Shown here in pieces: positions 1,450 through 46,229 of a DNA stretch of 64,000 nucleotides (positions are counted from its first letter, which is position 1; every line of letters starts with the position of its first letter). The stretch covers positions 2,487,541 to 2,551,540 of the forward strand of contig CBDEUC010000003.1 in NCBI GenBank assembly GCA_965243105.1, given 5' to 3'. Made by a program: the position numbers and the translations under genes. Under the pieces are notes generated by a model, which saw only the letters and a program-made list of their open reading frames with translations, was not told where the DNA came from and did not search any database. Source of the DNA: Gammaproteobacteria bacterium. GTDB taxonomy: Bacteria > Pseudomonadota > Gammaproteobacteria > Eutrophobiales > Eutrophobiaceae.

Positions 1450-3333
1450 TTAGTAGCTGGCGTCTATCCAGGGCCCGTAAAAGACCCGTTCGCCTTCTAT
1501 GAATTCAATGCCAAGCTGGTATTGAAATGTATCACCACTTAATACCCACGAGGGGATGACAATGTTGGCACTCTCGCCAACCTGCAGGGTGACGTGATCA
1601 GAGTATGCGTGCGCCTGGAAAACCTGTGCATCCTGGCGTACTCGAACAGTCACCGTGTAGGAATTGCCGGATGTTATGCCTTCAAGCTCCAGGGTCACAT
1701 CCAGCTCATCGTCAATTCTCCTGATACCTCCGTGAACAGTGGGTATGGTTTCCACGTCTTCCGCGTATTCTGACAACAGCTGCAGAAAATCTGTATTCAC
1801 TGCCGAGTAATCACAGTTGGCCCTGTTCAAAACGGAAGCCCAGAATGCCTCGCCTGCCAGGTTTGTTGCACCCAGGTCTGCCATTGCGCGAACAACGTCT
1901 CCGGGAGCCTGTTGACCACATGCCCGGGCCAGGGAAGATACCCAGGCTTCACCAATCGCATAAATCACATTTTCATCATACTTTTCAGCAAATACTGCCG
2001 CAGACATGAGATCATCAAACTTCAGGTCGTGCCTGGTCCAGGCGGCTGATGCAAGGATTCTAAGTGCGTTTCGTGTTTCATCGAGTTCAAGGGTTTCGTA
2101 AGAAGCCCACTCGGCAATCCCTTCGCTAAAAAAGCGGGCATCATCGGCATGGTCACTCATGCGTCGGTCTGAACCAATACCCACGAGAACATGCACTGTT
2201 TCATGCACGAATACGTGGGCGCGTTCATCCGCATCTCGCAAAGCACTGCTGCGCATACGCAGTTTCTTCCAACCAGCAATGCCCAGGTGCTGATCGCTGG
2301 TATCGGTAAGATCAGCCACTACCTTGCCTGACAGGCTTATCCCGAGTAGTTGCTCAACGTTCCTGTAATGTTCGTCAGCTTCAAGCTGTAGAAGCTGAGC
2401 GAATTTCTCGTCCCTGGCATAATGTGAAAGTCGGTAGAACTCGGTTTCTACAACTCGTGGGCGATAGTTCCCTCCATCGCCTGCCAGTCCCCCTACCATG
2501 TCGGAGAACATGGTAATGCTAAGGTAGCTCAGAATTACCATGGCCGCGGCCAGGGTAGTTAAAATGCCTTTCACGCGAGGGCCCAGCCTGTTGGTAAACC
2601 TGACAGAGGTATCCTGGTCGCTGGATGTCCACAGGCGACCCGCCAGGAAAAAACACAGGCTGGCAAGAACCAGGTGATAACTCCATGCTTTTACAGAAAA
2701 AAGTATTTCCTCGCCGCGGTAATCGGGCACCAGCAGGGAAGACGGATTTAGAAATTTTAGTGCCGGAACACCTGCCTCAAGAACGCTTATACTGATCCAG
2801 TAAATAATTACGGCAAGCACTCCGAAGACACGGAACCAGGAGGCAAATAATCCGATGGCCAGCCCGACAAAACATACGCCAAAACCAAGAGCGAGCTCAA
2901 GCCACCACAGTTTCCATGAAAATTGAGTTTGGGTAACTGAATTCACATTAAAACTATGTACGAAGAAGGAGTTGAACTGGCTGATGATAAAGATTGCCAG
3001 GAGTATGAAGGAGGTAGCAAGTACCTTGGTAAAGTAAACTTGCCAGCGTGATACAGGCAGACTCCATAGAAGGTTTAGTGTTGAATGTTCCCGCTCATGG
3101 GGGAATATCCTGTAGGCGGCGACGAGGCCGATGACAAAATAGGTGCCGGCAGAGATCATTGCGTTCTCAGTCGTAAGTATTCCTGACAGGTAGGACCAGG
3201 TGATCGTATCGGGTGTTTGTTCGGAAAGAAGGAAATACCAGCCAAGTATTTCAATTGCGAAAAGGGCCAGGATAAGCGGAATCATGTGATGCAACTCTTT
3301 CCTGGCCAGGCTCAGAAAACAGGCAGCATTCAT
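1450..3333 (-). CDS. ABC-2-type membrane permease fused to an M1-like (gluzincin) zinc peptidase domain
   Basis: N-terminal about 250 aa is multi-TM. The C-terminal soluble domain has HETVH followed by E about 23 residues later (HExxH...E). 4-bp overlap with the upstream permease, so the two are translationally coupled. Confidence 0.5.
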   Translation of the reverse strand: MNAACFLSLARKELHHMIPLILALFAIEILGWYFLLSEQTPDTITWSYLSGILTTENAMISAGTYFVIGLVAAYRIFPHEREHSTLNLLWSLPVSRWQVYFTKVLATSFILLAIFIISQFNSFFVHSFNVNSVTQTQFSWKLWWLELALGFGVCFVGLAIGLFASWFRVFGVLAVIIYWISISVLEAGVPALKFLNPSSLLVPDYRGEEILFSVKAWSYHLVLASLCFFLAGRLWTSSDQDTSVRFTNRLGPRVKGILTTLAAAMVILSYLSITMFSDMVGGLAGDGGNYRPRVVETEFYRLSHYARDEKFAQLLQLEADEHYRNVEQLLGISLSGKVVADLTDTSDQHLGIAGWKKLRMRSSALRDADERAHVFVHETVHVLVGIGSDRRMSDHADDARFFSEGIAEWASYETLELDETRNALRILASAAWTRHDLKFDDLMSAAVFAEKYDENVIYAIGEAWVSSLARACGQQAPGDVVRAMADLGATNLAGEAFWASVLNRANCDYSAVNTDFLQLLSEYAEDVETIPTVHGGIRRIDDELDVTLELEGITSGNSYTVTVRVRQDAQVFQAHAYSDHVTLQVGESANIVIPSWVLSGDTFQYQLGIEFIEGERVFYGPWIDASY

Positions 3334-5258
3334 GGCATAACCAACTTGTCATAGCCGAACCTTACAATCATGTTATAGGGCATGAGCTGGCATTCAAGGG
3401 CGGTGTAAACACGATTTCCTTTACCATACCTGCCTGTTATAGATCGAATCACCTGCTTTTGCCCAACCGGCCATGTGAACTCGTCTTTTCGTAAAGTATT
3501 AGGCGCGACGGGAATGTTGTAACCGGGAAGCTTGCGATGAAGCGCGGTACAACTCATCTCTGAAGCAAGGGCTTTCTCAAGCTCAAGGTTAAATTTTAAA
3601 ACCCGCTGTCCGCTCTCGTTAACCTCGCCGGTAACGGAATACCTGGCTACTGGAATGGCTGCGATCCTGCTGGCGTACTCTTCTTGCCGTGCAAGTTGTT
3701 CTACCTGGTTTCTCCATTGCTCAACAAACCCAGGCCATGAAAGGCCGGTTGCTGACTCAAAACGTGCTGTGAAAGGCTTACGCCAGTCCGACCACCAGTC
3801 ACGTATATCTCCATGAACCTCGCGTCGAAATTCGGACTCTGCGAATTGCCTCACGGTGTCATGACCCACCAGGTCTTCCAGTACGCGCCAACCTGAGTAA
3901 GAAAGGGCAAGGCCGAGGGATTCGCCTATGCGATCGCTGGTCGTTTCCCACTGGGTAATTGTTTTTTCATCTATGTTGACTCGTTGCGAGACATACATGG
4001 CAAGAACGAGTAAATCATTTGCAGGGGTATCAAGCGACCCAGGGGGTTCTCCGTTATGCACGACTAACCAGCTTGAAAACCCATCCAGGAACCAGTGCGA
4101 AGGCTCGAGTATTACCCTGTTTAACGAAGCGGTGGATAACAACTGGTGAACAACAAAAATACCAAAATGCGGAAAATTCCAGCCGGGTGCGTCAATAAAG
4201 TTTGCATCAACCCTTATACCTTGCGTGGTGCTGGCCAGGCGTGTGGAGTACGCCTTGGATTTAGCAATGGGCGAAAGTGAAATACGGGTGATGTATTCAT
4301 CCTTGTTAAAGGGCAGGTATGACTCAACCTTGGATAGCGGTATTTTCAACTGGTCTGCGAGTGTAATTGCATCCTGTTCATATTTTGGATCCAGGTAAGC
4401 TATCTCAAGCTTTTCTCGAGCGATAACATGTTCCTGCGTAAAGGCAAAGTTTTGTTCATTGCCTGGAGGCTCGAGCATGCCAATCATGCCGAGTGATACA
4501 ACCACCAGCACAAATAGAAAGCTCTTGTCACGCGTTGACATGGGTACAGCAAGACTTTCTACGTAGGAACCATCGTCGACGTTCATCAGTAGAAAAGCCA
4601 GGGCTATAGCAATCACCCCTATAGCCAGGGATATTCCCAGCTCTGCAAGGGGGAAACTGTCCCGTTCAAAACTAAAAAGTTCCTGGTCGATGAGTGCAAC
4701 AGGACCAAAGCGGTTGAGCTCCAGTGATGTTTCTGTGCTGATAAAAAAAAGAGCGACTGCTGCAAGGCTGGCGAGTGGTATTCGCCAGCGTCCCAGTAGT
4801 GAAAAAACAAATACGCAACTCCACACGACAAAAACGTAAGCCCCAAGGCGGGTAGCCATGATCACGGAAAAGCGGAATTCGAGAGGTTCGTGAAAACTGG
4901 CGGTGTACATTGAATACCCCCAGACAGAAAACGCGAAAATACTGACCACCACGAGGCCTATAGCGTACTTTACAGATACCATGTAAGCAGGCCTGAAGGG
5001 GAGCGCCTCGATAAATCGTTGTGTCCTGCTGTAGTATTCCTGGGTAACCAGGAAGTAACCAACCCCGAGTGCGATAAAGACAAGTGCCGGCCAGGCAAAA
5101 ATGGGTACCAGCTGCAGGTCACTTAAGACTGCATCACTGAACAACATGAACCTGACGATGAGCCATGCAAATATTATTGAAACCAGCGACAACCAGGCAA
5201 AGCTAGCGCGATGTTGTCGTAGCTCCTTGCCAGCCAGGCCGCGCAGGATAGTGATCAT
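3330..5258 (-). CDS. ABC-2-type membrane permease with a large C-terminal soluble domain (paralog of 1450-3333, no HExxH)
   Basis: Six-TM-like N-terminal region followed by about 390 soluble residues. Overlaps the ATPase gene stop by 4 bp. Confidence 0.45.
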   Translation of the reverse strand: MITILRGLAGKELRQHRASFAWLSLVSIIFAWLIVRFMLFSDAVLSDLQLVPIFAWPALVFIALGVGYFLVTQEYYSRTQRFIEALPFRPAYMVSVKYAIGLVVVSIFAFSVWGYSMYTASFHEPLEFRFSVIMATRLGAYVFVVWSCVFVFSLLGRWRIPLASLAAVALFFISTETSLELNRFGPVALIDQELFSFERDSFPLAELGISLAIGVIAIALAFLLMNVDDGSYVESLAVPMSTRDKSFLFVLVVVSLGMIGMLEPPGNEQNFAFTQEHVIAREKLEIAYLDPKYEQDAITLADQLKIPLSKVESYLPFNKDEYITRISLSPIAKSKAYSTRLASTTQGIRVDANFIDAPGWNFPHFGIFVVHQLLSTASLNRVILEPSHWFLDGFSSWLVVHNGEPPGSLDTPANDLLVLAMYVSQRVNIDEKTITQWETTSDRIGESLGLALSYSGWRVLEDLVGHDTVRQFAESEFRREVHGDIRDWWSDWRKPFTARFESATGLSWPGFVEQWRNQVEQLARQEEYASRIAAIPVARYSVTGEVNESGQRVLKFNLELEKALASEMSCTALHRKLPGYNIPVAPNTLRKDEFTWPVGQKQVIRSITGRYGKGNRVYTALECQLMPYNMIVRFGYDKLVMP

Positions 5259-8334: not shown

Positions 8335-9255
8335 TTATTCCATTCCGAGTAATTGGCGGGTCTCACGCATGACGATTTTCCAGGCCGTGGAAATCGGCGC
8401 AATGACATCAAAATGCCCGGCGCCGTCGACAACAGCGAGGCTGATATCATCACCTGCTGCGCGCGCCTTCGCCAGGAATGCGGTGCTCTGCCTGAGAGGT
8501 ACAAGCACATCTGCGGCGCCATGCACCATGCGCACGGGTACATTAAGCGGTAGTAACTGTACCGGGTTTACCTGTGCTACGCGTTCAGGCACGTCTTCCG
8601 GCTCGGCCATGAGCAAACCAGGGACACCGGTATTGCAATCCTGGGTGTCATACTCATGGCGATAGCTTGAAAGGTTACTGATAGCTGCCAGGGGTACCAC
8701 TCCCCTTATTTTTAGCGGGTTGGCGCTATAGAATTCGCTACTGGAGTCAAGGTTGTTTCTTGCCGCGTACCACAGCACCAGGTGCCCCCCGGCCGAGTGT
8801 CCCATCAACACCACGCGCGAGAGGTCAAGTCTGTGCCCGGGTGCAATTTCGCGAAGGTATTCAATACTGTTAGCCAGGTCATGCATGGTGCCCGGCCAGG
8901 CGCCTCCTTCATTACCAATACGACGATACTCCACGGTCCATGAGGCAATACGAGCCCGGGCCAGTTCTCCGCTCAAGTTTGCTGCCATGGTTAAATCAAA
9001 GTCGGAGAGCCAGCAACCACCGTGGACGAATACCACGACTGGATGCGGTCCTTTACCCGCAGGCAAACGTAATTCGCCAAACTGGTATTGGCCTGGCCCA
9101 TAATTGATTACATGGTCTGCTGGTGGCTTGGGTAGTGCACTGAGTTGCTCCCAGCTAATCGGCAAGCCTTTTTCACCGGCCTGGATACTGGCCACTGAAA
9201 GAGTGCCCAGCACTGCTATGAGTACAAGGAAATATTTTTTACAGTGTCTGCTCAT
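8335..9255 (-). CDS. Secreted alpha/beta-hydrolase (esterase/lipase family)
   Basis: Signal peptide. HGGCW oxyanion motif and GHSAGG nucleophile elbow. Confidence 0.7.
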   Translation of the reverse strand: MSRHCKKYFLVLIAVLGTLSVASIQAGEKGLPISWEQLSALPKPPADHVINYGPGQYQFGELRLPAGKGPHPVVVFVHGGCWLSDFDLTMAANLSGELARARIASWTVEYRRIGNEGGAWPGTMHDLANSIEYLREIAPGHRLDLSRVVLMGHSAGGHLVLWYAARNNLDSSSEFYSANPLKIRGVVPLAAISNLSSYRHEYDTQDCNTGVPGLLMAEPEDVPERVAQVNPVQLLPLNVPVRMVHGAADVLVPLRQSTAFLAKARAAGDDISLAVVDGAGHFDVIAPISTAWKIVMRETRQLLGME

Positions 9256-10658
9256 TTTGAAAACACCATTAAACGTAACAACGGGTAGAGGATAACAACA
9301 GTCAGGCAGGACGTGATGACTTCAATTGCAATAATATCTGCCATAACATAGTGTGCCATGATAACGCTGGAAAAAAGTGTAATCACGCCGGCCCAGTTAA
9401 CATTCTCGGGCTCGTCATCTGAAACTTCCAGTCCTGCCTGTATTCGAGGCTTCACTAAAAAGTAATCCACAAGGATTATCCCGGACAGGGTGCTCAGCAA
9501 TACACCGAGCAGGCTGATCCAGGCCTCTACCAGTTCAAGAATATGACCGTAAAGCATCAGCAGGCCGATAATGTTGGCAAAGACGATGAAAGTGAAGCGA
9601 CCCGGGCGCCATTTTATCAATGCGTCGAAAAAGTTTGTCAGGGAAAGCGACGCGGCATAACAATTAAGTACCTGCGCCTTTGCCTGCGCAATAAACATGA
9701 GTAGAAAACCAGTTACACCGCCATAAAGCATGAATGCTGCGGCAATACTATCAGGACTTTTTAACACCAGTTGCTGTGCTTCCTGCATGGAAAGACCCTG
9801 TGACTCGACATAGTAATTGGCGAGCCCAGCCGCTGCCGCGTACATCAGGATACCCCCTGTCAACATGACCAGTACTGACTGGAAAAAACCGCCAATGAGC
9901 ACCGCAGAGGTTGCATGCATGGTAGAGCGGGCATAGCGCCCATAGTCGACCGACACCAGTGGCAGGGCACAGGCCGGACCAATGAGAATATTCAAACTGA
10001 AAACAAACTTGTCCCAGTCAGACTGTATACCCATGGATCGAAGTGCCTCTGCCGGGAACTGGCTTTGAAACGTGAGGACACCTGTTAATGAACTATCAGC
10101 CTGCATGACGACCTTGACGAGCACCCATGCCATGACCAGCAAAAAAGCGATTAGCAGGAGCGACGAAAAGCGTGCAATGATGGCAAAACCAAACGTGGTC
10201 ACGAGGATCCAGAGAAGGGTCAGGCCGCCATATATAATGAGTTTCATGGCGAGCCCATCGGACAACTGGAAAAAATGCAGGATACCCCTGTAAAGCAGGG
10301 CATTTTCCAGGGCCAGCATTCCGATTATGAGGAAGCTGAAGATTACGGACGCCAGTACAGAGCCCTTGATGCCGAGCCCATATTGACGGGTTACAAGGGT
10401 ATTGGAGTACCCGGTATGGTAGGCAACGTGGGAAAGGCCCCAGCCGAGGAAACTGCCAAATATCAATGAAACAATACCGGCGATCAGGGCAATTTTCACG
10501 CCGGCAACAAAACAAACCAGCGCACCAAAAAAAAGGATCACCAGGGTAGTCACAATACCCGCTGTGTTCCAGGTCAGGCTCAACCAGCCAAGACGTTCCT
10601 GTTCAGGAACTGCCTCGAGGGAATGGTCATCTACAAGCGCTTTAAGGTTCTCTGCCAT
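9252..10658 (-). CDS. NCS1-like (purine-cytosine permease family) transporter
   Basis: About 12 predicted TM segments. N-terminal region resembles CodB/NCS1 permeases. Weak call. Confidence 0.4.
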   Translation of the reverse strand: MAENLKALVDDHSLEAVPEQERLGWLSLTWNTAGIVTTLVILFFGALVCFVAGVKIALIAGIVSLIFGSFLGWGLSHVAYHTGYSNTLVTRQYGLGIKGSVLASVIFSFLIIGMLALENALLYRGILHFFQLSDGLAMKLIIYGGLTLLWILVTTFGFAIIARFSSLLLIAFLLVMAWVLVKVVMQADSSLTGVLTFQSQFPAEALRSMGIQSDWDKFVFSLNILIGPACALPLVSVDYGRYARSTMHATSAVLIGGFFQSVLVMLTGGILMYAAAAGLANYYVESQGLSMQEAQQLVLKSPDSIAAAFMLYGGVTGFLLMFIAQAKAQVLNCYAASLSLTNFFDALIKWRPGRFTFIVFANIIGLLMLYGHILELVEAWISLLGVLLSTLSGIILVDYFLVKPRIQAGLEVSDDEPENVNWAGVITLFSSVIMAHYVMADIIAIEVITSCLTVVILYPLLRLMVFSK

Positions 10659-12095: not shown

Positions 12096-12650
12096 ATGAC
12101 CGGGATAATCGATACTATCCACGCGGATCACCGTAATTATTCGGTGCTTTTATCGATGCTTAATGCTGACATTGATAACATGAAAAAAGGTGAGAAAGCT
12201 GACTTTATCAGGCTATATGACATCATGAATTACATGATTAATTATCCGGATGTAAAGCATCATCCTGCTGAAGAGATCATTTTCGAACGACTCGAACAAA
12301 AGCAGCCGGAAATAAAAGAAGAGGTCACGCAGCTCGTGGAAGAGCATCGGCAACTGGCTGAGACAGGGCGTGCTTTACAGGAAAAACTTCAGCAGGTCAT
12401 CGGTGGGGGCATAGTCTCAAGGGAGTCGATCAGTGACGCTGCCAGGGATTACTATGAACTGCTGTCAAATCACCTGAACTTTGAAGAAGGCAAGTTGCTG
12501 CCGCTGGTGAAGCAGTCTTTCTCTGACGATGACTGGCAGAATATACAAGTCAGGCTCTCTGAAGATGAAGATCCCTTGTTTGGAAACGCTATTGATGAGC
12601 AATTTACAAACCTGTTACAGCGAATTTCAGAGTACAGGAATCTAAACTAG
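12096..12650 (+). CDS. Hemerythrin-like domain protein
   Basis: His/Glu-rich helical protein (DHRNY..., KHHPAEE...). Family assignment is tentative. Confidence 0.4.
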   Translation: MTGIIDTIHADHRNYSVLLSMLNADIDNMKKGEKADFIRLYDIMNYMINYPDVKHHPAEEIIFERLEQKQPEIKEEVTQLVEEHRQLAETGRALQEKLQQVIGGGIVSRESISDAARDYYELLSNHLNFEEGKLLPLVKQSFSDDDWQNIQVRLSEDEDPLFGNAIDEQFTNLLQRISEYRNLN

Positions 12651-12743: not shown

Positions 12744-13226
12744 TCAGGGCTGGTAGGGCAGGGAAGAATGATGCAGCACAATTCTCAGCGTTCCTTCTTC
12801 GTCTTTCTTATAGCCCCAGCTTTTATCAAGCTTGGTGACGTTGCCATCCTTGTCAGTGCAGATCACCCAGCCCATCCACATTGCCACGTCTCCCTGGATG
12901 AAAGTGGCTGAAGTCTCAGAAACCACGTTGCGCCACCCCTTGATCGCAAAACCACCATCCAGCGGATAGTCATCACTGTGACCGACGAAGTAGGATAGTG
13001 CACCTTCTCTCGTTGGTCGGAAAGTTTGTTCGCCGCTTGCGAGGGTCGGCTTGAACAGGACCGGACCCATGTTATAACCATAGGCAGCATCAAGCGCGCC
13101 GTTGGCCATTTCCGTCGCAGCATCGATACCGCCGTCTTCGAAAGCTTTTGAAATAGCAACCAGGGCATCGCCCCATATCTTGCGTGCTTCTGTCAGTTCC
13201 TGTTCCGTAATCGTAGTTGTCATCAT
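12744..13226 (-). CDS. Hypothetical protein, NTF2-like/SnoaL-like fold suspected
   Basis: 160 aa with no diagnostic motif. The size and sequence feel of NTF2-like proteins. Confidence 0.3.
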   Translation of the reverse strand: MMTTTITEQELTEARKIWGDALVAISKAFEDGGIDAATEMANGALDAAYGYNMGPVLFKPTLASGEQTFRPTREGALSYFVGHSDDYPLDGGFAIKGWRNVVSETSATFIQGDVAMWMGWVICTDKDGNVTKLDKSWGYKKDEEGTLRIVLHHSSLPYQP

Positions 13227-13474: not shown

Positions 13475-14185
13475 TCAAAAAGAATGGTGCAGGCTGACCT
13501 GGATTTGCCCCTTGTCGACGTTGCTGGTTGCCTGGTGCATATAGCCGCCCTGTATTTTGAAGTTCTTTGTAAGGCTGTATCCAAGCGCGGCATAGAGACG
13601 ATTTCGATCAAAGGTTTTTACGCGCCGACCGTTGCCAATATTTTTTTCCAGGTTGAGAAAGATCTCGTTATAAATTGCAAGATACCAGGTGCCCGGGTCA
13701 ATGTGGGTGTTATTCAGTGGAATATCCATGAACAGTGCGTAGCGGAAACGAGTGCGAAAGTCCTGGTCCTCCACCCATCGCTGCTCTGTACGAAATCGGT
13801 GCCTGAACTTGAGGCGTTCGCCAAGCCCGTGCCGAACCAGGGCTTCCTGGTAAATACGGTGTTCATTGCTGGTGGCATCGCTGTCCCCAAAAGCACCGGA
13901 AGTAATATTGGCGTAACCCTGTGTCAGCGTCACAACCTTGTTCCTCGTGGTCCAGGTCAGCCCACCCCTGAGCAACAATTGCTCCAGGTCACCACCAAGA
14001 TCCCAGTTACGATATTGCACATCTCCCTGCAGACCCCATTGCGATCCTTCAAATTGTTTGGCGAAAAAGTACATGTACCATGCGCCAGTATCGTCCTCGT
14101 CGATAGCCTGCTGCGCAAAGGAAACGCCGGGCAGCATCTTCAACACCAGGATAAGGCACAGTAATTTCTTGATTGGCTTATTCAT
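13475..14185 (-). CDS. Outer-membrane beta-barrel protein (DUF2490-like)
   Basis: Signal peptide ending SFA after the internal start MNKPIKK. Aromatic-rich alternating beta strands and a C-terminal F. Confidence 0.5.
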   Translation of the reverse strand: MNKPIKKLLCLILVLKMLPGVSFAQQAIDEDDTGAWYMYFFAKQFEGSQWGLQGDVQYRNWDLGGDLEQLLLRGGLTWTTRNKVVTLTQGYANITSGAFGDSDATSNEHRIYQEALVRHGLGERLKFRHRFRTEQRWVEDQDFRTRFRYALFMDIPLNNTHIDPGTWYLAIYNEIFLNLEKNIGNGRRVKTFDRNRLYAALGYSLTKNFKIQGGYMHQATSNVDKGQIQVSLHHSF

Positions 14186-14654
14186 ACGGGGCGGGATTAT
14201 GCACAAATACATCGGTGTTCTTCAATTTTTATGCAGCGCTTGGCGAGGGGTAAACGCGCATTCGGGTAAGTTTTCGCGTCGAACATCAGCGCCAGGCTGC
14301 GTGGATATCTTGAAAGTCTTGCTTGTCATGGCAATGGATTATAACCGTATTTGTCACCCATTTGAGGTAGTCAGTGTCAGAATTCCGTAAGCGAAAAGCA
14401 GTAATATCTCCTGCGCTGACATAAATCTGTCCTTATTTGATGCATACCGGGCCAGTCCCTGCTGGCAGCCTGCCTTCACTTGCGGGTTCGCTCGATTAAC
14501 GATTATCATTTGTCGACTTTCCTTGTCTTATACATCTCGAATGTGTTTTCGAAACTGCTTTCGAACATCTTTTGAGTAGATTTGCTGAGTCCAATCTATA
14601 AATAAAAACAACAATTCAGGGGTCTGAATCGTCGCAGGGGGAACCGCGAGGGAA

Positions 14655-15467
14655 ATGGAGGAAAAGAGTCCGGAAGATGCAGGGTTGCCTTCGCCCGAGA
14701 GCCTGGTGCAGGACATTGGGCGGGGCAGGTTACAAGCTGAGGGCTTACTCGTCTCCCGTTACTGGCGCAGCCTGTATTTCATACTCCAGCGCCGAAGCAA
14801 TGATGTTGATCTCGCTGCTGACATTGCCCAGGACACCTTCATGGTGGTCATTCGCAAGGCCCGCAATGGTGAAATAACCAATCCTTCTGCTGTCGCCGCG
14901 TTTATTCGCCAGACCGGTATTAACCTGCTTATCGCGCATTACAGGAAGGAAAAAAGAAGAAATACAGAGGCTGACAGCGATATTATTCTTGACGCCGCCG
15001 ATAGCTCACCTGGCCTGTTACAGTCAGTAGAAGCAGAAAAGGTATTCGAACTCGTCATCCAGGTGCTGGAAGAGTTAAAGGTCGAAAGAGACCGCGAGAT
15101 TCTAAAGGCCTATTTTTTACATGAAGAAGAAAAAGCCGCGATATGCGACCGCCTGGGGCTGAGCCACGAACATTTTGACCGGGTACTTCACAGGGCCAGG
15201 GGCAGGTTAAAGCAATTACTTGAATTCAAGTACGGGGAAATCAAGCTAACTGGTGCAGAAGAGAGCATCGCCAGTACCCTGTTACTGATGCTTTTTCTCA
15301 TTGAAACAGCTCATATTCCTTATCATCCGCATAATTTCTCTAATTCTGCATTTACAGTGAGAGAACCGCACTCTTCCCATCACTATGAAGGCAGAAACGA
15401 GATTTACGGAAGAATCTTCAACTCGGGAGGGGAGGACAGCTATACCTGTCCCATGAAAACCAGTTGA
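14655..15467 (+). CDS. ECF-type RNA polymerase sigma factor with a roughly 80-aa C-terminal extension
   Basis: Sigma-70 region 2 (DIAQDTFMVV) and region 4 (REILKAYFLHEE...). The extra C-terminal segment includes a hydrophobic stretch. Confidence 0.75.
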   Translation: MEEKSPEDAGLPSPESLVQDIGRGRLQAEGLLVSRYWRSLYFILQRRSNDVDLAADIAQDTFMVVIRKARNGEITNPSAVAAFIRQTGINLLIAHYRKEKRRNTEADSDIILDAADSSPGLLQSVEAEKVFELVIQVLEELKVERDREILKAYFLHEEEKAAICDRLGLSHEHFDRVLHRARGRLKQLLEFKYGEIKLTGAEESIASTLLLMLFLIETAHIPYHPHNFSNSAFTVREPHSSHHYEGRNEIYGRIFNSGGEDSYTCPMKTS

Positions 15468-15478
15468 GAGTGAATTAA

Positions 15479-16117
15479 ATGGATAAAGACTACATAGAAG
15501 AGCAGGACATTTCGGGTAAATACCTGCGTGGCGAGTTAACTGCTGAAGAAATAGAGAGCTTTGAGCTTCTGTTCATGGATGACCCGGAACTGTTGGAGCG
15601 ACTTGAACTTGACGCAGCGTTTTTTCGACATGCAGGTGGTGCGCACGAAGAAATTGATAATGTTAATAAAAACAGCACTTGGTTATCGTTTATCCAGGTT
15701 GCCATGGGCATGGCAGCGGGTGTACTGATCATGACTTTTGTACCCCAGTTAACCAGGGATGATGAGGATTTACTGGACACCCTTGGTATTGCCCAGGTCG
15801 AATACATTGATGAACTCAGGGGTGTTGATCCGGGTAAGGTTCCAACACGCTCGATTGAGTTAAACAGTAGCGCAGAGAACCTGGTGATTGTCATTGATAC
15901 CGGTGACATATTAAACATGTCCTATGACATCGTTATTAACAGGAACTCAGGAAACAGGCAGGTGGTCTCCAGCGTTATTAATGTCGCTGATACAACGGGT
16001 GAACTTGTCATTTATATTCCCGTGAGACTTATTAGTGAAGATGTTTATGTCCTGACAATGTATGAGAGTGGCACTCGTGATGTGATGAAAACATTCTTTC
16101 TTGATGTAAGCCATTAG
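15479..16117 (+). CDS. Single-pass membrane protein in the anti-sigma position (putative anti-sigma factor)
   Basis: Lies 12 nt downstream of the ECF sigma gene. Cytoplasmic N-terminus, one TM (WLSFIQVAMGMAAGVLIMTFV), periplasmic C-terminus. No zinc-binding anti-sigma motif. Confidence 0.4.
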   Translation: MDKDYIEEQDISGKYLRGELTAEEIESFELLFMDDPELLERLELDAAFFRHAGGAHEEIDNVNKNSTWLSFIQVAMGMAAGVLIMTFVPQLTRDDEDLLDTLGIAQVEYIDELRGVDPGKVPTRSIELNSSAENLVIVIDTGDILNMSYDIVINRNSGNRQVVSSVINVADTTGELVIYIPVRLISEDVYVLTMYESGTRDVMKTFFLDVSH

Positions 16118-16145
16118 CACGGTTCTACATTGCCCTGTAGAAAAA

Positions 16146-17444
16146 ATGAAAAAAAAAGATATACGGGCACTTATTCCGGAGATAGCGACGAGCATGACGG
16201 GTGCCAGTTATGGCTCTTCTACATTGAGCGCCGGTATGACCTACCTGGGTCAGTTTATCTCTCACGAAATCGTTCCTAACACCATAAAGCTGACTACTTC
16301 ACGGGTAGTCACAAGAGAACTTAACCTTGACAGCGTCTATGGTGACAACAGTCTTTACACCAACCTGCTCGGGGATAAGGATAATATTTTCTTTCGCAAA
16401 AACGGGCGGTTTGTCCTGAATGAAAACAATCCGCATGACCTGAACAGGATTGAAAAGGGCCCCTTGAAGGGAACCGCCGTTATACCGGAGCAGCGTAATG
16501 ATGAAAACATGATCATTGCGCAACTGCACCTGCTGTGGCAAAAGTTACACAATGCCCTGATGGATAAAGGTATCGCAAGGAGTGCCCTGGATGCGCGAAA
16601 GATAGTCACGCTCATGATTCAGGTGGTTATTATCGAGGATTACCTGCACCAGGTGCTGGACGAGAATGTGTTTCACGCTTACTTCAGAAGCAGCAGGAAA
16701 TACCTGAAATTCGATTTCACCAGCATCCCGACTTTTTTTTCACACGCTGGTTTCCGCTTCGGGCATAGCATGGTCCGTGAAGTCTATGAAGTGAACAACG
16801 GCAGGAAGCTGCCCCTGTTAAGTCTCTTCGGCAGTGAAATGCCTATCCCGGGCGACAAGGCCATTTCATGGGACAAGTTTTTTAGAATCGACGGTAGTGA
16901 AAGTGCGCAGAAAGCGCTTGAAATAAATACTTTTATCAGCACACACATGAAAAGCATACCAGGCAGTGGTTTGCATAACATCACAACCCATATTATCGAG
17001 CGTAATCTTCTTGCCGGGTTGGAAGCCGGTTTGCCAGGTGGTAAGGAGTTTGTACAGTCAGTTATGGAACAATGCAATCGCTGCGACATCAAGAAAGACC
17101 TTGACCTCCACCTGCTGGAGGATATCTCGCAGGCTTCTTTCAGCGATGTCAAAGGCCTTTCCATTGATAACCTGCCATTGTGGCTCTATATCCTTTACGA
17201 GGCACAGGTGGAACATTCAGGTTTCAGGCTGGGCGTCCTCGGAAGCATGATCGCCGCGGAGGTATTAAGTGCCTCAATGTCCGGTGCTGCTATTTCCGTA
17301 TATAAGAATGACACTTACGAGGTAGATGAAGTTATGGAAATGCTTGACGAATTAGTTCCGGGATTCACGTCGGGATTTGATGTGAATTTCAAACAGGCCG
17401 ACATGTTCATGTCGAATTTGATCAAATTTGTGGAAAACAGCTAG
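16146..17444 (+). CDS. Short bacterial haem peroxidase of the peroxidase-cyclooxygenase (animal haem peroxidase) superfamily
   Basis: Distal-His region LGQFISHEI. REHNR-like helix RNDENMIIAQLHLLWQKLHN. Proximal FRFGH motif (AGFRFGHSMV). No signal peptide. Confidence 0.5.
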   Translation: MKKKDIRALIPEIATSMTGASYGSSTLSAGMTYLGQFISHEIVPNTIKLTTSRVVTRELNLDSVYGDNSLYTNLLGDKDNIFFRKNGRFVLNENNPHDLNRIEKGPLKGTAVIPEQRNDENMIIAQLHLLWQKLHNALMDKGIARSALDARKIVTLMIQVVIIEDYLHQVLDENVFHAYFRSSRKYLKFDFTSIPTFFSHAGFRFGHSMVREVYEVNNGRKLPLLSLFGSEMPIPGDKAISWDKFFRIDGSESAQKALEINTFISTHMKSIPGSGLHNITTHIIERNLLAGLEAGLPGGKEFVQSVMEQCNRCDIKKDLDLHLLEDISQASFSDVKGLSIDNLPLWLYILYEAQVEHSGFRLGVLGSMIAAEVLSASMSGAAISVYKNDTYEVDEVMEMLDELVPGFTSGFDVNFKQADMFMSNLIKFVENS

Positions 17445-17455
17445 GAGGAGGAAAG

Positions 17456-17950
17456 ATGGCTAAAGACTATAAGAAGGAAACGGACTGGGCGGCAGGGCCC
17501 CACAACGTATCGACAGCTATATTCGAGGTGGATAATTCCCAGGCAGAAAAACATACCGATCTACATCCGTATCTTCCCAGTGACAATGGCAAGTACAAGT
17601 TCAAATCGCTGGTGTATCCCGACGGAGCGGGTGGTCACTTTATTTTCCAGATACCCGATGATAACGGGCCATGGGATAAAAACATGGGCGTTATTATGCG
17701 TTCGCTGAAGTTAAAATTGCAGGATGATGAAAAAGGTAATCCTTACCTGCTGGACGCAAATGTCAGCTACGATCTGAAAGGGGGTAGCATTGGTAATGAT
17801 CCCGGTTGGGATGTCACCGAGTGGCGTGTCGATGTTGCGAATATTGGTAGGGAGGATGAAGAAATCCTGGACACGGTTACCTGGACCAAGGAAGGTGTAG
17901 GTACGATCCAGACCTTCGCCAAGTGGCGTCCTTACAAAGAGCTCGCATAA
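17456..17950 (+). CDS. Hypothetical 164-aa protein with no recognisable family
   Basis: Strong RBS (TAGGAGGAGG) 6 nt before the ATG. Sits between the peroxidase and CHAT genes with 11-nt and 22-nt gaps. Confidence 0.5.
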   Translation: MAKDYKKETDWAAGPHNVSTAIFEVDNSQAEKHTDLHPYLPSDNGKYKFKSLVYPDGAGGHFIFQIPDDNGPWDKNMGVIMRSLKLKLQDDEKGNPYLLDANVSYDLKGGSIGNDPGWDVTEWRVDVANIGREDEEILDTVTWTKEGVGTIQTFAKWRPYKELA

Positions 17951-17972
17951 ACACACAGGGCAGGTTGTCAGC

Positions 17973-20666
17973 ATGGGAGTGAGATTCCTGTTTTTAAGTT
18001 TGAGCCTTCTGGTTTGTCCAGGGGCTCTCGCCTGCGATGTTGAGTTGATTTTCTCAAGGTCATTGCCTTCCGCGCAGGGATCAAGGAGTGACCCTGTCGG
18101 AGCGCTGGCAATTCACGAGGAATATTTGCAGCAGGTGTCCTGCAGAAGCAGCCCCGCTACTCGAGCCGGTAGTTCTATCAAGCTTGTCGAGCTAATCCTT
18201 AACAAGGCGCAACATGGGTCGGCTAGCCGGGAAGCCTTGCATGAAAATGCGATTGCGCTGATCAGTGATGCAAAAAATGAAAGTAAGGCTAATGGTTTGT
18301 ATATCGAGTATGCACGCCTTCTTCAATTGCAGTGGGTCCTGCATCTCCAGATAAATGAATCCATAAAAGGCCTGGAGCTGCTACCCGAGGCTATTGATTA
18401 CTTAAAACGAGCTGAAGCTCCCACTGAATTGATCGCGGAGATTTATAAAGATCTTTCCTACACCTATATCCTGGCAGGAGAATTCTCCAGTGCGAAAACA
18501 TACCTGAGACGGGCTGTTGTTCTTACAGTAAATTCCAGCGATGACGATCTAAAAACAGAAATTATCCTGTCTATCGCTGATGCCTATAGAAAAACGGCCG
18601 AGCTCGAAATTGCAACAAGATACTATCGGCAGGCATATTCAATCAACGAGGCGAAAAACAATGAATTCAAGTACGACGCCCTGCTCAAGCTGGGTACCCT
18701 CGACAGGGAACAGGGCTACATTGACAGGGCTGTTAAGAAACATCTTAATTCCTACGAATTCTTTAAAAGTGGAAATTATTACAGGTCACTGGTAGCTGAA
18801 ATCGAACTTGCCCGTGATTTCCTGGCAAAGAGTGATCTTGAACAGTCAAGCAAGTACGCATTACTCGCCTTCAATGATAGTCGTGCGTTCACTGAGCAAA
18901 AACTCGATGCAGTGCTGGTATTGATGAAATCCGATCCGGGTAACTGGGAAAAATGGTCGAATGAAATCCAGGCTATCCTGGAGAGCGCTATAGCAAGATC
19001 AGGCACTGATGTTGCTCACCCGATACGCCAGCTGGAGCATGCTCGCCTGGAACTTGGGTATGTTTCAGAATCAGGAGATGAAGATGCTATCAGGCAAGTA
19101 GGTGAAAAAGGATTACGCGTATTCACAAGGTTACGCGATGACTTGAACCGCTCAGAGGAGGCTTACCACGGCTGGATGGCGTCCGCAAAACCCTTTATCA
19201 GCACCTATATCAAGACACTCTATCACACGGACAAGGAGCGCCTGTTTGATGTCCTTGAAAAAACCTACTCAATTAGTCCGAAACCGAACCAGTTACAAGG
19301 CGCTCCCCTGCTTAATCAGCAAAAGGAACCAGAAGAGATTGCCCTTTTTGAAGCCTATCTTGGCGCCGAGAAAATGGTGGTCGATGCCAGTTCGGACTGG
19401 GAAAAGGAACGTAATACTACTAACAGGGAAAAGCTGGAGCAGCTCAAAACAAGCAGGGACCTGGCAAGAGAAGCTTACCTTGAATCGAGGAAAAGCAAGC
19501 AAGAGAAAATTATTCCTCGGCCCGAAGTCGTCGAAATGACACCGAGTGAAATCGCTCCTGGAGACCTGTTTCTCAGGTATTACCTGCAAAAAGATATCAG
19601 CCTGTTGCTGGCAAGGCATGCGGGTGGTGAAGAGATTATCGAGTTGCCAGCTCGCTCAGAAATAAGAAAGCTGGTGAACGAACTGGACGAGCTTTTCCTG
19701 TCTGGTGGATCGAGCCGTGCAAAGCGACTGCAGTTACTGGGCCAGTTACGGGTGCTGTTGCCAGTACAATTATTGCAGGACAGGGATTTCCTCAGGCTGG
19801 TCATCCTGCCCGATGACGAGATCCACAGGGTACCCTTTTCCGCGATCAACCTGGAAAACCGGGATGGCTTCTATAAACCTGTTTCGAGCAAGTATCGAAT
19901 TACACGAACACATTCGGCATACCAGTACTATGCCGGGAATAGCCAGGGCAACATGAATGTTGAAAATACCGGTGCTGATATCCTGGTATTTGCCGATCCA
20001 CATTTTGACGAATATCGGCATGCTGGTAGTTCCTCAGACTCTTTCAGGAACTGGTCAAGGAACCTTGCTCGATTACCGCACACAGCGGATGAAGCCAGGC
20101 AAATCGTTACTCTTTTCCCCGATAAGAAAACCGCTGTTTTCCAGGGTAAAGAAGCTACGGACGCAATCCTGTTATCAGAGCAGGCAAGATTGGCAAATGT
20201 TCTGCATATTGCCACTCACGGTTACTACAACCAGAACACACCGGACATTGTTGGTGTCGCAACAGCGGTGGAAGACAAGGATGGTAATCCACAAAGGGGT
20301 TTCCTGAGCTTGTCAGCATTGCTGAGCATGCCCTATAACTCGGACTTAATTGTCATCAGCGGTTGTGAAACTATGCTTGGAAAAGAATATGACGGTTTTG
20401 GCGTGCAGGGCCTTGCCCAGGCCTTCATTGCACAAGGTGCTGGCTCCGTTGTCGGTACGCTATGGAAAGTTGCAGATAAACCCACCTCGATATTTATGAG
20501 GTACTTCTACGAGGCGCTGAAATCAAATGGCGGCAACAGTTCCCTGGCATTAAATACTGCCAGGAACAGGTTGGCATCAATGGGGAGATACAGGGATCCG
20601 ATTTACTGGGCTGCATTTGTCCTGACTTCGGCGAATACCTCGTTTGAGGAAAACATTCTTCATTGA
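17973..20666 (+). CDS. Secreted TPR-repeat protein with a C-terminal CHAT (caspase-like) peptidase domain
   Basis: Signal peptide (LLVCPGALA). TPR-like helical repeats. CHAT His/Cys dyad (HIATHGYY and ISGCETMLG). Confidence 0.75.
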   Translation: MGVRFLFLSLSLLVCPGALACDVELIFSRSLPSAQGSRSDPVGALAIHEEYLQQVSCRSSPATRAGSSIKLVELILNKAQHGSASREALHENAIALISDAKNESKANGLYIEYARLLQLQWVLHLQINESIKGLELLPEAIDYLKRAEAPTELIAEIYKDLSYTYILAGEFSSAKTYLRRAVVLTVNSSDDDLKTEIILSIADAYRKTAELEIATRYYRQAYSINEAKNNEFKYDALLKLGTLDREQGYIDRAVKKHLNSYEFFKSGNYYRSLVAEIELARDFLAKSDLEQSSKYALLAFNDSRAFTEQKLDAVLVLMKSDPGNWEKWSNEIQAILESAIARSGTDVAHPIRQLEHARLELGYVSESGDEDAIRQVGEKGLRVFTRLRDDLNRSEEAYHGWMASAKPFISTYIKTLYHTDKERLFDVLEKTYSISPKPNQLQGAPLLNQQKEPEEIALFEAYLGAEKMVVDASSDWEKERNTTNREKLEQLKTSRDLAREAYLESRKSKQEKIIPRPEVVEMTPSEIAPGDLFLRYYLQKDISLLLARHAGGEEIIELPARSEIRKLVNELDELFLSGGSSRAKRLQLLGQLRVLLPVQLLQDRDFLRLVILPDDEIHRVPFSAINLENRDGFYKPVSSKYRITRTHSAYQYYAGNSQGNMNVENTGADILVFADPHFDEYRHAGSSSDSFRNWSRNLARLPHTADEARQIVTLFPDKKTAVFQGKEATDAILLSEQARLANVLHIATHGYYNQNTPDIVGVATAVEDKDGNPQRGFLSLSALLSMPYNSDLIVISGCETMLGKEYDGFGVQGLAQAFIAQGAGSVVGTLWKVADKPTSIFMRYFYEALKSNGGNSSLALNTARNRLASMGRYRDPIYWAAFVLTSANTSFEENILH

Positions 20667-20732: not shown

Positions 20733-22223
20733 CTAGTCCCAGGAAAAATCACCATCCTGGTTCAAGGGCACCCCTTCCAGTTCAAATGCCCTGACCAGGG
20801 GCTCTAGTTCTGACTCGTAGTTTTTCCAACGGTACACGGACTTACTATAGATAGGTTGCCTGACCTGCCAGCTACTGGCTGTCCTGACGGACCTGCCGAA
20901 CTCCTGTGGTGAAAGACAATTCTCATCCCACTCTAGATCAAGGAAATCCAGGAGAGCTCTAATTTCCCTTTCACCATGACCAACCAGGTCCTGGTATCTC
21001 ATGGTATAAACGGGTATATCCAGGTTCTTTGTCCAGTGCTGCATTAATTTCAGGTACCCGGAGTAATAACAGGCGATATTACTCAAGGTGAAACTGAAAG
21101 ACTGTGAGTCTACAAAATTTTGAAAATAACAGGACAGGCAGGTATCAAGCGTGTTCCTGACACAATGAATAATGCGGGCCCTGGGGAAGATTAGCTTGAT
21201 CAAGGGCAAGTAGGTAAAGTTTGCAGGCATTTTATCAATAAAACGCACAGGACCAGCGCCTACCAGGTTTTCCGCTTTTTCCAGGTAAAGCTGTGCGAAA
21301 TCTTGCAACTTTTCCCTGGTTATATTTTCACGGTAGCCACTGAATGCATCTGATGTACCGGAAGTGATTACCCTACCAGACTTGTTTGTTGATAATTTAC
21401 CGCTAATAACCCTCTTATTTTTACACAATTCAAAATAAAAAAAGTTGTGAATATCTCTCAGCTCTCCCATACCAGCCACATCCCGGTGGGAAGCAAGAAT
21501 TTGCTCTGTTAATGTCGTGCCTGACCGGGGCATGCCGACTATAAAAACAGGCCTGTCATCACTTACCCCGCTTGATTGGACCGAGGCCATATATTCCACT
21601 GAAAAATTGGCAATCAGTTGATTAATATGCTGGTGAAAATCTGTTTGGCTGAATTGTAACTGGACCCGGGCATTGCCTTTACGATAATGACGAAATGCCT
21701 CCCGGTAATTTTTACAGTCATCGTAGATTTTCCCCAATGTAAAATGCAAAGTACATTGTGCGTCTTGCGATATGTCGGGTTGCCTTAAAAGCTCTTCTGC
21801 TTTACTAATTAGAGATTCTTCACCTGAATATTTCTTACAATGTGCCAGTTGATAATAACTGTTAGCAAATGACGGATTTAACTCGAGTGATTTTAAATAC
21901 AGGGTCTCCGCTTCCGAAAAAAGACCCATATCAAACTTGGCATTACCCATCCTGTATATGGGCAAATAGGATTCACCATGTAACTTGATGACCGTGGCAA
22001 GTATTGCTATTGCATCTTCAGCCTTATGTTGTTGTTGAAGTGCCAGGGCAAGCCCGAGCATGGCTGAAAAATTGTTTTCGGACTGTTCAAGTATTTGCCG
22101 GTAAATGATTTCTGCGTCTTCCGGCTTTTTCTCATTATGATACTGGCGCGCCTTCAGCAGTTGTTCGTCGAAGCGGGCTTTCCGTGGCCTTATTTGGCCT
22201 TTTATTTCATAGTTCTTGTTCAT
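20733..22223 (-). CDS. TPR-repeat protein fused to a sulfotransferase domain
   Basis: N-terminal TPRs. PAPS-binding 5'-PSB-like motif GMPRSGTT and a downstream sulfotransferase region. Confidence 0.7.
   Translation of the reverse strand: MNKNYEIKGQIRPRKARFDEQLLKARQYHNEKKPEDAEIIYRQILEQSENNFSAMLGLALALQQQHKAEDAIAILATVIKLHGESYLPIYRMGNAKFDMGLFSEAETLYLKSLELNPSFANSYYQLAHCKKYSGEESLISKAEELLRQPDISQDAQCTLHFTLGKIYDDCKNYREAFRHYRKGNARVQLQFSQTDFHQHINQLIANFSVEYMASVQSSGVSDDRPVFIVGMPRSGTTLTEQILASHRDVAGMGELRDIHNFFYFELCKNKRVISGKLSTNKSGRVITSGTSDAFSGYRENITREKLQDFAQLYLEKAENLVGAGPVRFIDKMPANFTYLPLIKLIFPRARIIHCVRNTLDTCLSCYFQNFVDSQSFSFTLSNIACYYSGYLKLMQHWTKNLDIPVYTMRYQDLVGHGEREIRALLDFLDLEWDENCLSPQEFGRSVRTASSWQVRQPIYSKSVYRWKNYESELEPLVRAFELEGVPLNQDGDFSWD

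Positions 22224-44525: not shown

Positions 44526-46229
<1,704 letters not shown>

Follow-up and report, generated by a model that had tools for sequence, protein, structure and literature searches.

An unannotated small-protein family encoded between a myeloperoxidase-like haem peroxidase and a predicted secreted TPR-CHAT protease

Genes at the locus

The window, that is, the whole 64 kb stretch of DNA that was analysed, contains a tight run of five + strand genes, extending from 14655 to 20666. The small open reading frame (ORF) studied here is one of these genes. The features of the run are as follows.

14655–15467, + strand: ECF-type sigma factor, 270 aa, matching TIGR02937 (sigma70-ECF) and Sigma70_r2/r4
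15479–16117, + strand: putative single-pass transmembrane anti-sigma factor, 212 aa, with a transmembrane (TM) segment at aa ~74–93 (KD 2.22), assigned from position and hydropathy
16146–17444, + strand: short myeloperoxidase-like haem peroxidase, 432 aa, no signal peptide, matching PF03098 (An_peroxidase) with E 2e-13
17442–17451, + strand: Shine-Dalgarno site TAGGAGGAGG, read directly from the sequence; its TAG is the stop codon of the peroxidase gene
17456–17950, + strand: small ORF, the subject of this work, ATG to TAA, 164 codons, encoding a 164-aa acidic, Trp-rich protein predicted to be mostly beta
17973–20666, + strand: predicted secreted TPR-CHAT protease, 897 aa, matching PF12770 (E 2e-50) and TPR families, with the signal peptide MGVRFLFLSLSLLVCPGALA followed by C

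The sigma factor matches TIGR02937 with an E-value of 2.4e-18 and a score of 66.3 bits against a cut-off of 42.9, and its Sigma70_r2 match is likewise above cut-off. A C-terminal extension of ~80 aa has a hydrophobic segment at aa 205–220. The second gene starts 11 nt past the sigma gene, and its product has an N-terminal cytoplasmic helix motif, one TM segment and a periplasmic domain of ~120 aa. From its position, its topology and its conservation together with the sigma factor, and from a sub-threshold zf-HC2 match (E 0.14) seen in only two of seven members, we infer that the 212-aa protein is an anti-sigma factor. It has no match in the PDB.

The peroxidase aligns to the heavy chain of myeloperoxidase, with its R-N-D-E and FRFGH motifs opposite R-S-S-E and FRYGH. 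Nine lineages keep the distal Q-x-x-x-H-D/E motif, the LNLDSxYG calcium-site motif, RND(E/D)N, and the proximal FRFGHSM. The CHAT protein begins with a hydrophobic segment (KD 2.22), and a signal-peptide-like N-terminus is found in 9/9 lineages; signal peptides were judged by eye and from hydropathy. The His/Cys dyad of the CHAT domain is intact, with HIATHG and SGCET conserved. Given their intact catalytic residues, both the peroxidase and the CHAT protease look active.

The first-pass annotation had placed an ORF between the peroxidase and CHAT genes, and this placement is borne out: an ATG-to-TAA frame occupies exactly the interval listed above, between flanks that match PF03098 and PF12770. 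The gap from the peroxidase gene to the small ORF is 11 nt, and that from the small ORF to the CHAT gene is 22 nt. The ORF was also said to have a strong, consensus-like ribosome-binding site 6 nt before its ATG. The site is indeed strong, with two overlapping AGGAGG cores 7 and 4 nt before the ATG, but the distance was misjudged, as the end of the motif is 4 nt from the start codon. The sequence AGGAGGAGG is found once only in the window, both strands counted. Strong Shine-Dalgarno sites also precede the homologous ORF elsewhere, namely TAGGAGGAG in locus L006, TTAGGAGGA in L011, AAGGAG in L059 and GGAGGA in L013.

The same annotation called the protein acidic and Gly/Asp-rich, a fair description of a sequence with a pI of 4.86, 11.0 % Asp and 9.1 % Gly. 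More distinctive are its Trp content (3.7 %), the absence of Cys, and the lack of any hydrophobic segment (maximum KD 0.67). A signal peptide is absent, as judged by eye and from hydropathy. This exact protein is predicted in a public sequence record, where it is given no name.

The small-protein family and its predicted fold

When 1.84 billion cluster representatives were searched exhaustively with HMMER (E ≤ 0.001), 24 proteins matched, 22 of them stand-alone proteins of 128–193 aa; the family is thus rare. P0013 (1510 aa) and P0017 (805 aa) were set aside as spurious, since these long, repeat-containing proteins align over short stretches. A word-indexed protein search gave two close relatives only and recovered 4 of the 24 family members. 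Genomic context was looked up for two of the distant representatives, P0019 and P0025 (24–25 % identity), and both genes again have an An_peroxidase gene on one side and a TPR-CHAT gene on the other. Once members recovered from loci are added, the family comprises 31 sequences.

Alignment of the family reveals twelve near-invariant positions, W11, L36, Y39, P41, W73, L84, D100, W118, W123, W143, W157 and Y160. That is, six Trp and two Tyr (Tyr39 and Tyr160) are kept, and conserved His, Cys or Met residues are lacking. It had been noted earlier that the ORF has no recognisable family or motif. The first part of that statement stands. The second does not, since a clear set of family-specific motifs exists. 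Comparison of the window protein with Pfam and NCBIfam gave no match at E ≤ 0.1, and comparison with PADLOC gave none at E ≤ 0.01. None of the members matches Pfam, and no family is common to the 24 even at E ≤ 1; the family members of L013 and L016 have no curated-family match either. Likewise, phmmer and profile searches of all PDB chain sequences returned nothing below E 0.016 and no Csx30. The small protein founds an unannotated family without known relatives.

Two other origins were considered and rejected. A tblastn search of phage and plasmid collections gave no match to the small ORF, and this result, together with the lack of a PADLOC match, speaks against a phage, plasmid or defence origin. 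We also discarded a relation between the small domain and the anti-sigma’s periplasmic domain (hhalign against the 212-aa protein, E 0.52, probability 0.1 %). Among 80 loci, the small domain was never seen fused to a peroxidase or a CHAT protein.

The two close homologues, those of L001 and L006, have 91–93 % protein identity to the window protein, with dS of ~0.8 and dN of ~0.04. The resulting dN/dS of 0.047–0.051 is the lowest among the five operon genes; the peroxidase gene is at 0.078, and values of 0.125–0.13 were obtained for the sigma, anti-sigma and CHAT genes. Homologues at 24–37 % identity keep both the length and the genomic position of the small ORF. It is a genuine gene under strong purifying selection. 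The view that the frame arose by chance, or that the gene is decaying and functionless, has nothing in its favour except the absent annotation, and we consider it refuted because of these conservation data, namely a dN/dS of ~0.05 at a dS of ~0.8 and distant homologues that retain length and position, to which can be added the conserved ribosome-binding site and the high confidence of the structure prediction described below.

AlphaFold2, when given an alignment of 24 sequences, predicts a compact, mostly beta protein with a pLDDT of 94.2, a pTM of 0.89, and no segment below pLDDT 50. This run replaced a model built from three close homologues, which had a pLDDT of 37. The predicted fold is built from eight strands, with short helices at the N-terminus and at the L-x-x-Y-L-P motif and a further helix at residues 75–83. 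Foldseek comparison of the model with the PDB found no match at E ≤ 0.001, and comparison with BFVD found no fold match. We also considered whether the small protein might be an extended, disordered pseudo-substrate in the manner of securin; with a compact prediction, eight strands and no low-confidence segment, this idea was dropped. What is new is an unannotated family with a confident predicted fold that has no PDB match by Foldseek. The family is tied to two types of enzyme whose bacterial roles are poorly understood, the short myeloperoxidase-like peroxidases and the secreted TPR-CHAT proteases.

Occurrence and limits of the gene module

The metagenome scan was anchored on the peroxidase to avoid circularity, and it yielded 61 loci, which were analysed with local HMMs. 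The peroxidases split into two types, a short type of 412–516 aa and a long type of 510–690 aa. Twelve lineages have a short-type peroxidase with flanking DNA, as follows: the window group, the P0002 group, L007, L008, L011, L013, L014, L015/L050, L016, L020, L021 and L059. Loci from beyond the peroxidase-anchored scan are also counted among these twelve. An adjacent ORF of 142–199 aa is present in 12/12. The first-pass annotation had named an ORF missing or broken where the flanking genes are shared as the finding that would tell against the gene; the short-type lineages were checked for it, and none shows it. The metagenome-assembled genome that contains L006 is labelled ‘Enterobacteriaceae’, a doubtful label, as blastn against E. 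coli genomes finds no match to its FadB-like gene.

In ten of the twelve lineages, the adjacent ORF is joined to the family by similarity that is independent of the lineage’s own sequence. The basis is HMMER similarity to the profile of close homologues, BLAST or tblastn identity of 75–93 %, or a match to the local A2 HMM at E ≤ 1e-4, the last being used for five lineages whose sequences were outside A2. The ORF of L015 was recognised by profile-profile comparison (E 3.5e-5), and for L059 recognition depended solely on position, size and motifs, F-R-P-Y-L-P being an example. The CHAT gene then follows in 10/10 lineages where the contig continues, so the small ORF is tied to the CHAT gene, a link that the first-pass annotation had suggested checking. 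The ~45 loci with a long-type peroxidase lack both the small ORF and a CHAT gene. Among these loci are four viral contigs, and the viral contigs carry long-type peroxidases only.

Homologues of the sigma factor are found upstream of the cassette in L006, L001, L011, L014, L015, L016, L021 and L059, and homologues of both the sigma and the anti-sigma precede the peroxidase in seven lineages. An all-against-all comparison showed that only the five module genes are common to the lineages. It follows that the module is self-contained and that its neighbourhoods vary. L007 and L008/L009 have the peroxidase, the small ORF and the CHAT gene without sigma or anti-sigma genes in 4–7 kb of upstream DNA. 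Therefore, the CHAT gene also travels with the peroxidase/small-ORF pair alone.

The spacing of the genes is informative. The peroxidase stop and the small-ORF start overlap by 4–8 nt in L008, L014, L021 and L059, and, of the other seven lineages, six have a gap of 11–18 nt between the two genes and L020 one of ~37 nt. Between the small ORF and the CHAT gene the gap ranges from +7 to +40 nt, and an overlap is never seen. Thus, the small ORF is coupled more tightly to the peroxidase gene than to the CHAT gene.

L013 has a different arrangement, in which the small gene precedes the peroxidase gene. Its GGAGGA site is followed by MNKDEPINLPRRRIATLSIGTGVALSLPMIAAARTAA, a twin-arginine-type leader, and about 30 of the 31 family members, L013 being the exception, are leader-free. 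The leader would place a folded small protein in the periplasm, the predicted compartment of the CHAT protease. The L013 protein might meet the CHAT protease there, or it might take the peroxidase with it as a hitch-hiker.

A search anchored on CHAT proteins found more distant TPR-CHATs whose genes adjoin ECF sigma genes, with neither a peroxidase gene nor the small ORF. Their arrangements are as follows.

L072: sigma gene, a 179-aa gene, then the CHAT gene
L073: sigma gene and zinc-type anti-sigma gene, divergent from a CHAT gene whose product has a signal peptide
L074/L075: CHAT gene, then the sigma gene

Proposed role of the small protein and likeness to known systems

We tentatively favour the proposal that the small protein is a dedicated, soluble, cytoplasmic partner of the adjacent haem peroxidase. 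In this partnership it might act as an accessory subunit, as a protein that presents a substrate or ligand, or as the peroxidase’s own protein substrate. The physical association of the two proteins is what the tight coupling of their genes suggests to us. The isoelectric point of the peroxidase tends to fall as that of the small protein rises (Spearman −0.67, p 0.05, n = 9, not corrected for phylogeny), and in L059 the charges of the two proteins are inverted; no such trend involves the CHAT protein. As a sign of partnership with the peroxidase, the anticorrelation is a weak one.

The peroxidase/small-protein pair would be the cargo of a five-gene module comprising the ECF sigma factor, the TM anti-sigma, the peroxidase, the small protein and the secreted TPR-CHAT protein. 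The operon is presumably controlled by its own sigma factor. A two-block k-mer search, together with inspection by eye, found no ECF-type promoter common to the lineages upstream of the sigma genes. In the proposed scheme, the CHAT protein would be a signal-sensing protease in the periplasm that clips the periplasmic domain of the anti-sigma, and the released sigma factor would switch on the operon. The scheme is modelled on the mechanism proposed for DdvA and on the demonstrated cleavage of Csx30 by Csx29. As target of the CHAT protease, this periplasmic domain is more probable than the small protein. Counting against the scheme are L007 and L008/L009, which have the trio without sigma and anti-sigma genes, and the leader of L013; the lack of any fusion between the small domain and a peroxidase counts against their partnership.

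The principal alternative is that the small protein is a substrate, an inhibitor or a regulatory partner of the CHAT protease, comparable to Csx30 with Csx29 or to securin with separase. The first-pass annotation had leaned in this direction, with Csx30 as its model. Csx30 inhibits an ECF-type sigma factor and is cleaved by the TPR-CHAT protease Csx29 (PMC10028731). The invariable presence of the CHAT gene after the small gene where contigs continue, including the two lineages without sigma and anti-sigma genes, fits a partnership of this kind, as do the CHAT catalytic dyad, which is intact everywhere, and the Tat-type leader of L013, which would bring a folded small protein to the predicted CHAT compartment. 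Set against this is the topology. The CHAT protein has a signal peptide and the small protein has none; the two are therefore predicted to be on opposite sides of the inner membrane, a mismatch of compartments that applies to about 30 of the 31 family members. In addition, the model of the small protein is compact and confidently folded, with no disordered stretch, and the protein is unlike every PDB chain. Its gene overlaps that of the peroxidase in four lineages and that of the CHAT protease in none, and the distant TPR-CHATs adjoin ECF sigma/anti-sigma genes in the absence of both the peroxidase gene and the small ORF. Taken together, the different compartments, the compact fold and the coupling on the peroxidase side make a CHAT substrate or inhibitor unlikely. 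Since Csx30 is an inhibitor of an ECF-type sigma factor, its natural analogue here is more probably the putative TM anti-sigma at 15479–16117. The Csx30 role itself thus fits the module, but the small gene is probably the wrong gene for it.

A narrower version of the partnership with the peroxidase, in which the small protein is specifically the enzyme’s protein substrate, strikes us as quite improbable when taken by itself. In such a case, Trp or Tyr residues would be oxidised or cross-linked to give a cofactor, a metal site or a signal. It is tempting to see candidates for modification in the six near-invariant Trp and two Tyr residues of a 164-aa protein with 3.7 % Trp and no conserved His, Cys or Met, whose gene is translationally coupled to that of a peroxidase with all its catalytic residues and has the lowest dN/dS in the operon. 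The conserved aromatics may, on the other hand, merely build the hydrophobic core of a beta-rich fold. There are precedents for oxidation of this type: MauG acts on the precursor of methylamine dehydrogenase, and MbnH converts a Trp of MbnP to kynurenine. As in the present module, the gene of a haem peroxidase is found beside that of a modest-sized protein with a critical Trp. MauG and MbnH, however, are periplasmic di-haem c-type peroxidases, whereas the enzyme encoded here is a myeloperoxidase-like PF03098 protein without a signal peptide. If the small protein does prove to be the substrate of the peroxidase, a protein-derived cofactor or cross-link would be made here by a route that is new. 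By extension, the trio could constitute a new system, with the peroxidase oxidising the invariant Trp or Tyr residues of a dedicated small protein whose fold had not been seen before. The product would be a cofactor, a cross-link or a signal, and the CHAT protease and ECF sigma factor would gate its production across the membrane; we would give this larger proposal little chance.

The predicted fold raises one further idea, as follows. The small protein might be a carrier with a calycin-like beta-barrel, supplying the peroxidase with haem or a hydrophobic substrate. The highest Foldseek probabilities (up to 0.97) went to lipocalins, among them lipocalin-type prostaglandin D synthase and the nitrophorins, which bind haem. 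In size and in its antiparallel, beta-rich architecture the small protein is like nitrophorin 4 and lipocalin-type prostaglandin D synthase, and the eight strands and short helices of the model, together with the conserved Tyr39 and Tyr160, could suit such a function. The matches themselves are not significant (E ≥ 0.017, TM ≤ 0.40, rmsd 6–8 Å), and there is no sequence similarity to lipocalins or other calycins. The main helix of the model is placed between strands 3 and 4, whereas that of lipocalins comes after strand 8, and conserved His, Cys and Met residues are absent. We consider a carrier of this kind very unlikely.

Regardless of the exact part played by the small protein, the module as a whole resembles the protease-gated ECF switches DdvS/DdvA and Csx29/Csx30/CASP-sigma. 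The type III-E ‘Craspase’ system, too, groups the gene of a TPR-CHAT protease with those of a partner protein and an ECF-type sigma factor, and the proposed switch is cleavage of a sigma inhibitor by the protease (PMC10028731). Csx29 is cytoplasmic and is activated by the RNA-guided Cas7-11. In contrast, the CHAT protein described here is predicted to be secreted, and the module has no CRISPR genes. Like the gene of Csx30, that of the small protein neighbours a TPR-CHAT gene, here one whose product has an intact dyad, but the small protein has no sequence or fold similarity to PDB chains.

The DdvS/DdvA system of Myxococcus xanthus combines the kinds of component predicted for the present module, namely an ECF sigma factor, an anti-sigma that spans the membrane once, and a periplasmic TPR-CHAT bearing a His/Cys dyad. 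In DdvA, the TPR-CHAT forms the periplasmic part of the anti-sigma itself, and self-cleavage has been proposed (PMC11506125); DdvA lacks three helices of the CHAT active site (PMC11506125). The TPR-CHAT and anti-sigma that are fused in DdvA are here the products of separate genes (897 aa and 212 aa), with two genes between them. Furthermore, the regulon of DdvS is a CBASS/CRISPR island, in contrast to the co-transcribed haem peroxidase and orphan protein of the present module. The module differs from both switches, then, by its free, secreted CHAT protease, by the co-transcription of the peroxidase and orphan protein, and by having no CRISPR or CBASS genes.

A CHAT-type protease gene beside an ECF sigma gene, as here, is also a feature of group ECF54, whose members have CHAT, carboxypeptidase or subtilase genes nearby (PMC8999054). 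ECF54 is described without an anti-sigma, and neither a peroxidase nor a small protein is mentioned (PMC8999054). The main text of the ECF classification paper (PMC7826278) mentions neither CHAT nor peroxidase, and no description of a peroxidase–CHAT association was found in the literature searched. The small family thus marks a compact bacterial signalling module that is absent from that literature. With its five genes, the module is small enough for a study of how a caspase-like protease might control transcription across a membrane, and it offers a route to the cellular role of a bacterial myeloperoxidase-like enzyme. More broadly, TPR-CHATs may turn up repeatedly in partnership with ECF sigma/anti-sigma pairs, being fused to the anti-sigma in DdvA, linked to CRISPR in Craspase, and free and secreted in the module described here.

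DNA upstream of the sigma factor gene

The first gene of the module encodes an ECF sigma factor, and the DNA directly 5′ of it was compared with that of L006 (CAZXDV010000076.1), the closest homologous locus.

14655–15467, +, ECF sigma factor, 270 aa

Over the 183 nt extending from 14472 to 14654, the two sequences are 93.4% identical; farther upstream, the identity is 61–75%, and at the third codon positions of the neighbouring genes it is about 71–73%. Within the segment, positions 14614–14629 form a hairpin, AUUCAG/CUGAAU, and the L006 counterpart reads GUUCAG/CUGAAC, a compensatory pair. The segment is possibly a regulatory leader.

The sigma factor itself has a C-terminal extension of about 80 residues, within which lies a hydrophobic segment, residues 205–220. 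The extension is kept in six of the seven lineages that have homologous sigma and anti-sigma genes upstream of the peroxidase gene, and the proteins there are 269–280 aa long. The homologue at the locus L059 is shorter, at 208 aa, with its C-terminus just past the hydrophobic segment. It is possible that the sigma factor is membrane-tethered or is unusual in another way.

Genes flanking the module and the L006 source label

The genes surrounding the module in the window are as follows.

12096–12650, +, hemerythrin-domain gene, upstream of the module
12744–13226, −, 160-aa gene without a family, upstream of the module
13475–14212, −, DUF2490 gene, upstream of the module
20733–22223, −, TPR plus sulfotransferase gene, flanked by the CHAT gene and a FadB-like gene

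The synteny of the 160-aa gene and the DUF2490 gene is kept in L006 and not in the other lineages. In L006, the CHAT gene is followed directly by the FadB-like gene. The L006 MAG is labelled "uncultured Enterobacteriaceae bacterium", a label that looks unreliable since the FadB-like gene of the window had no blastn match among 5,426 E. coli genomes.

Distant TPR-CHAT loci and variant cassettes

Distant TPR-CHAT genes, with 26–28% identity over the CHAT domain, adjoin ECF sigma genes at four loci (L072, L073, L074, and L075), at which the peroxidase gene and the small ORF are both absent. This arrangement suggests that the association of TPR-CHAT with ECF sigma genes is general.

At L013, the gene order is reversed, with the small-family gene (L013 2324–2923) located upstream of the peroxidase gene rather than downstream. 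Its ORF is preceded by a GGAGGA site and begins with a twin-arginine-type leader, PRRRIATLS...AAARTAA. The contig stops 43 nt past the peroxidase gene.

Irregular gene structures were seen in other cassette relatives: the peroxidase of L011 is split into two ORFs (2121–3449), the CHAT gene of L015 is broken directly ahead of the catalytic Cys (9310–9320), and in L016 the first start of the CHAT ORF comes after a 519-nt gap (8723–9242). Frameshifts, pseudogenes, or assembly errors are possible explanations.

Elsewhere in the window, an Rfam 5_ureB_sRNA match (44675–44961, −; 111.7 bits) runs antisense to the 5′ part of a urease alpha-subunit gene, 44526–46229. Rather than marking a real sRNA, the match may arise because the urease coding sequence is conserved.
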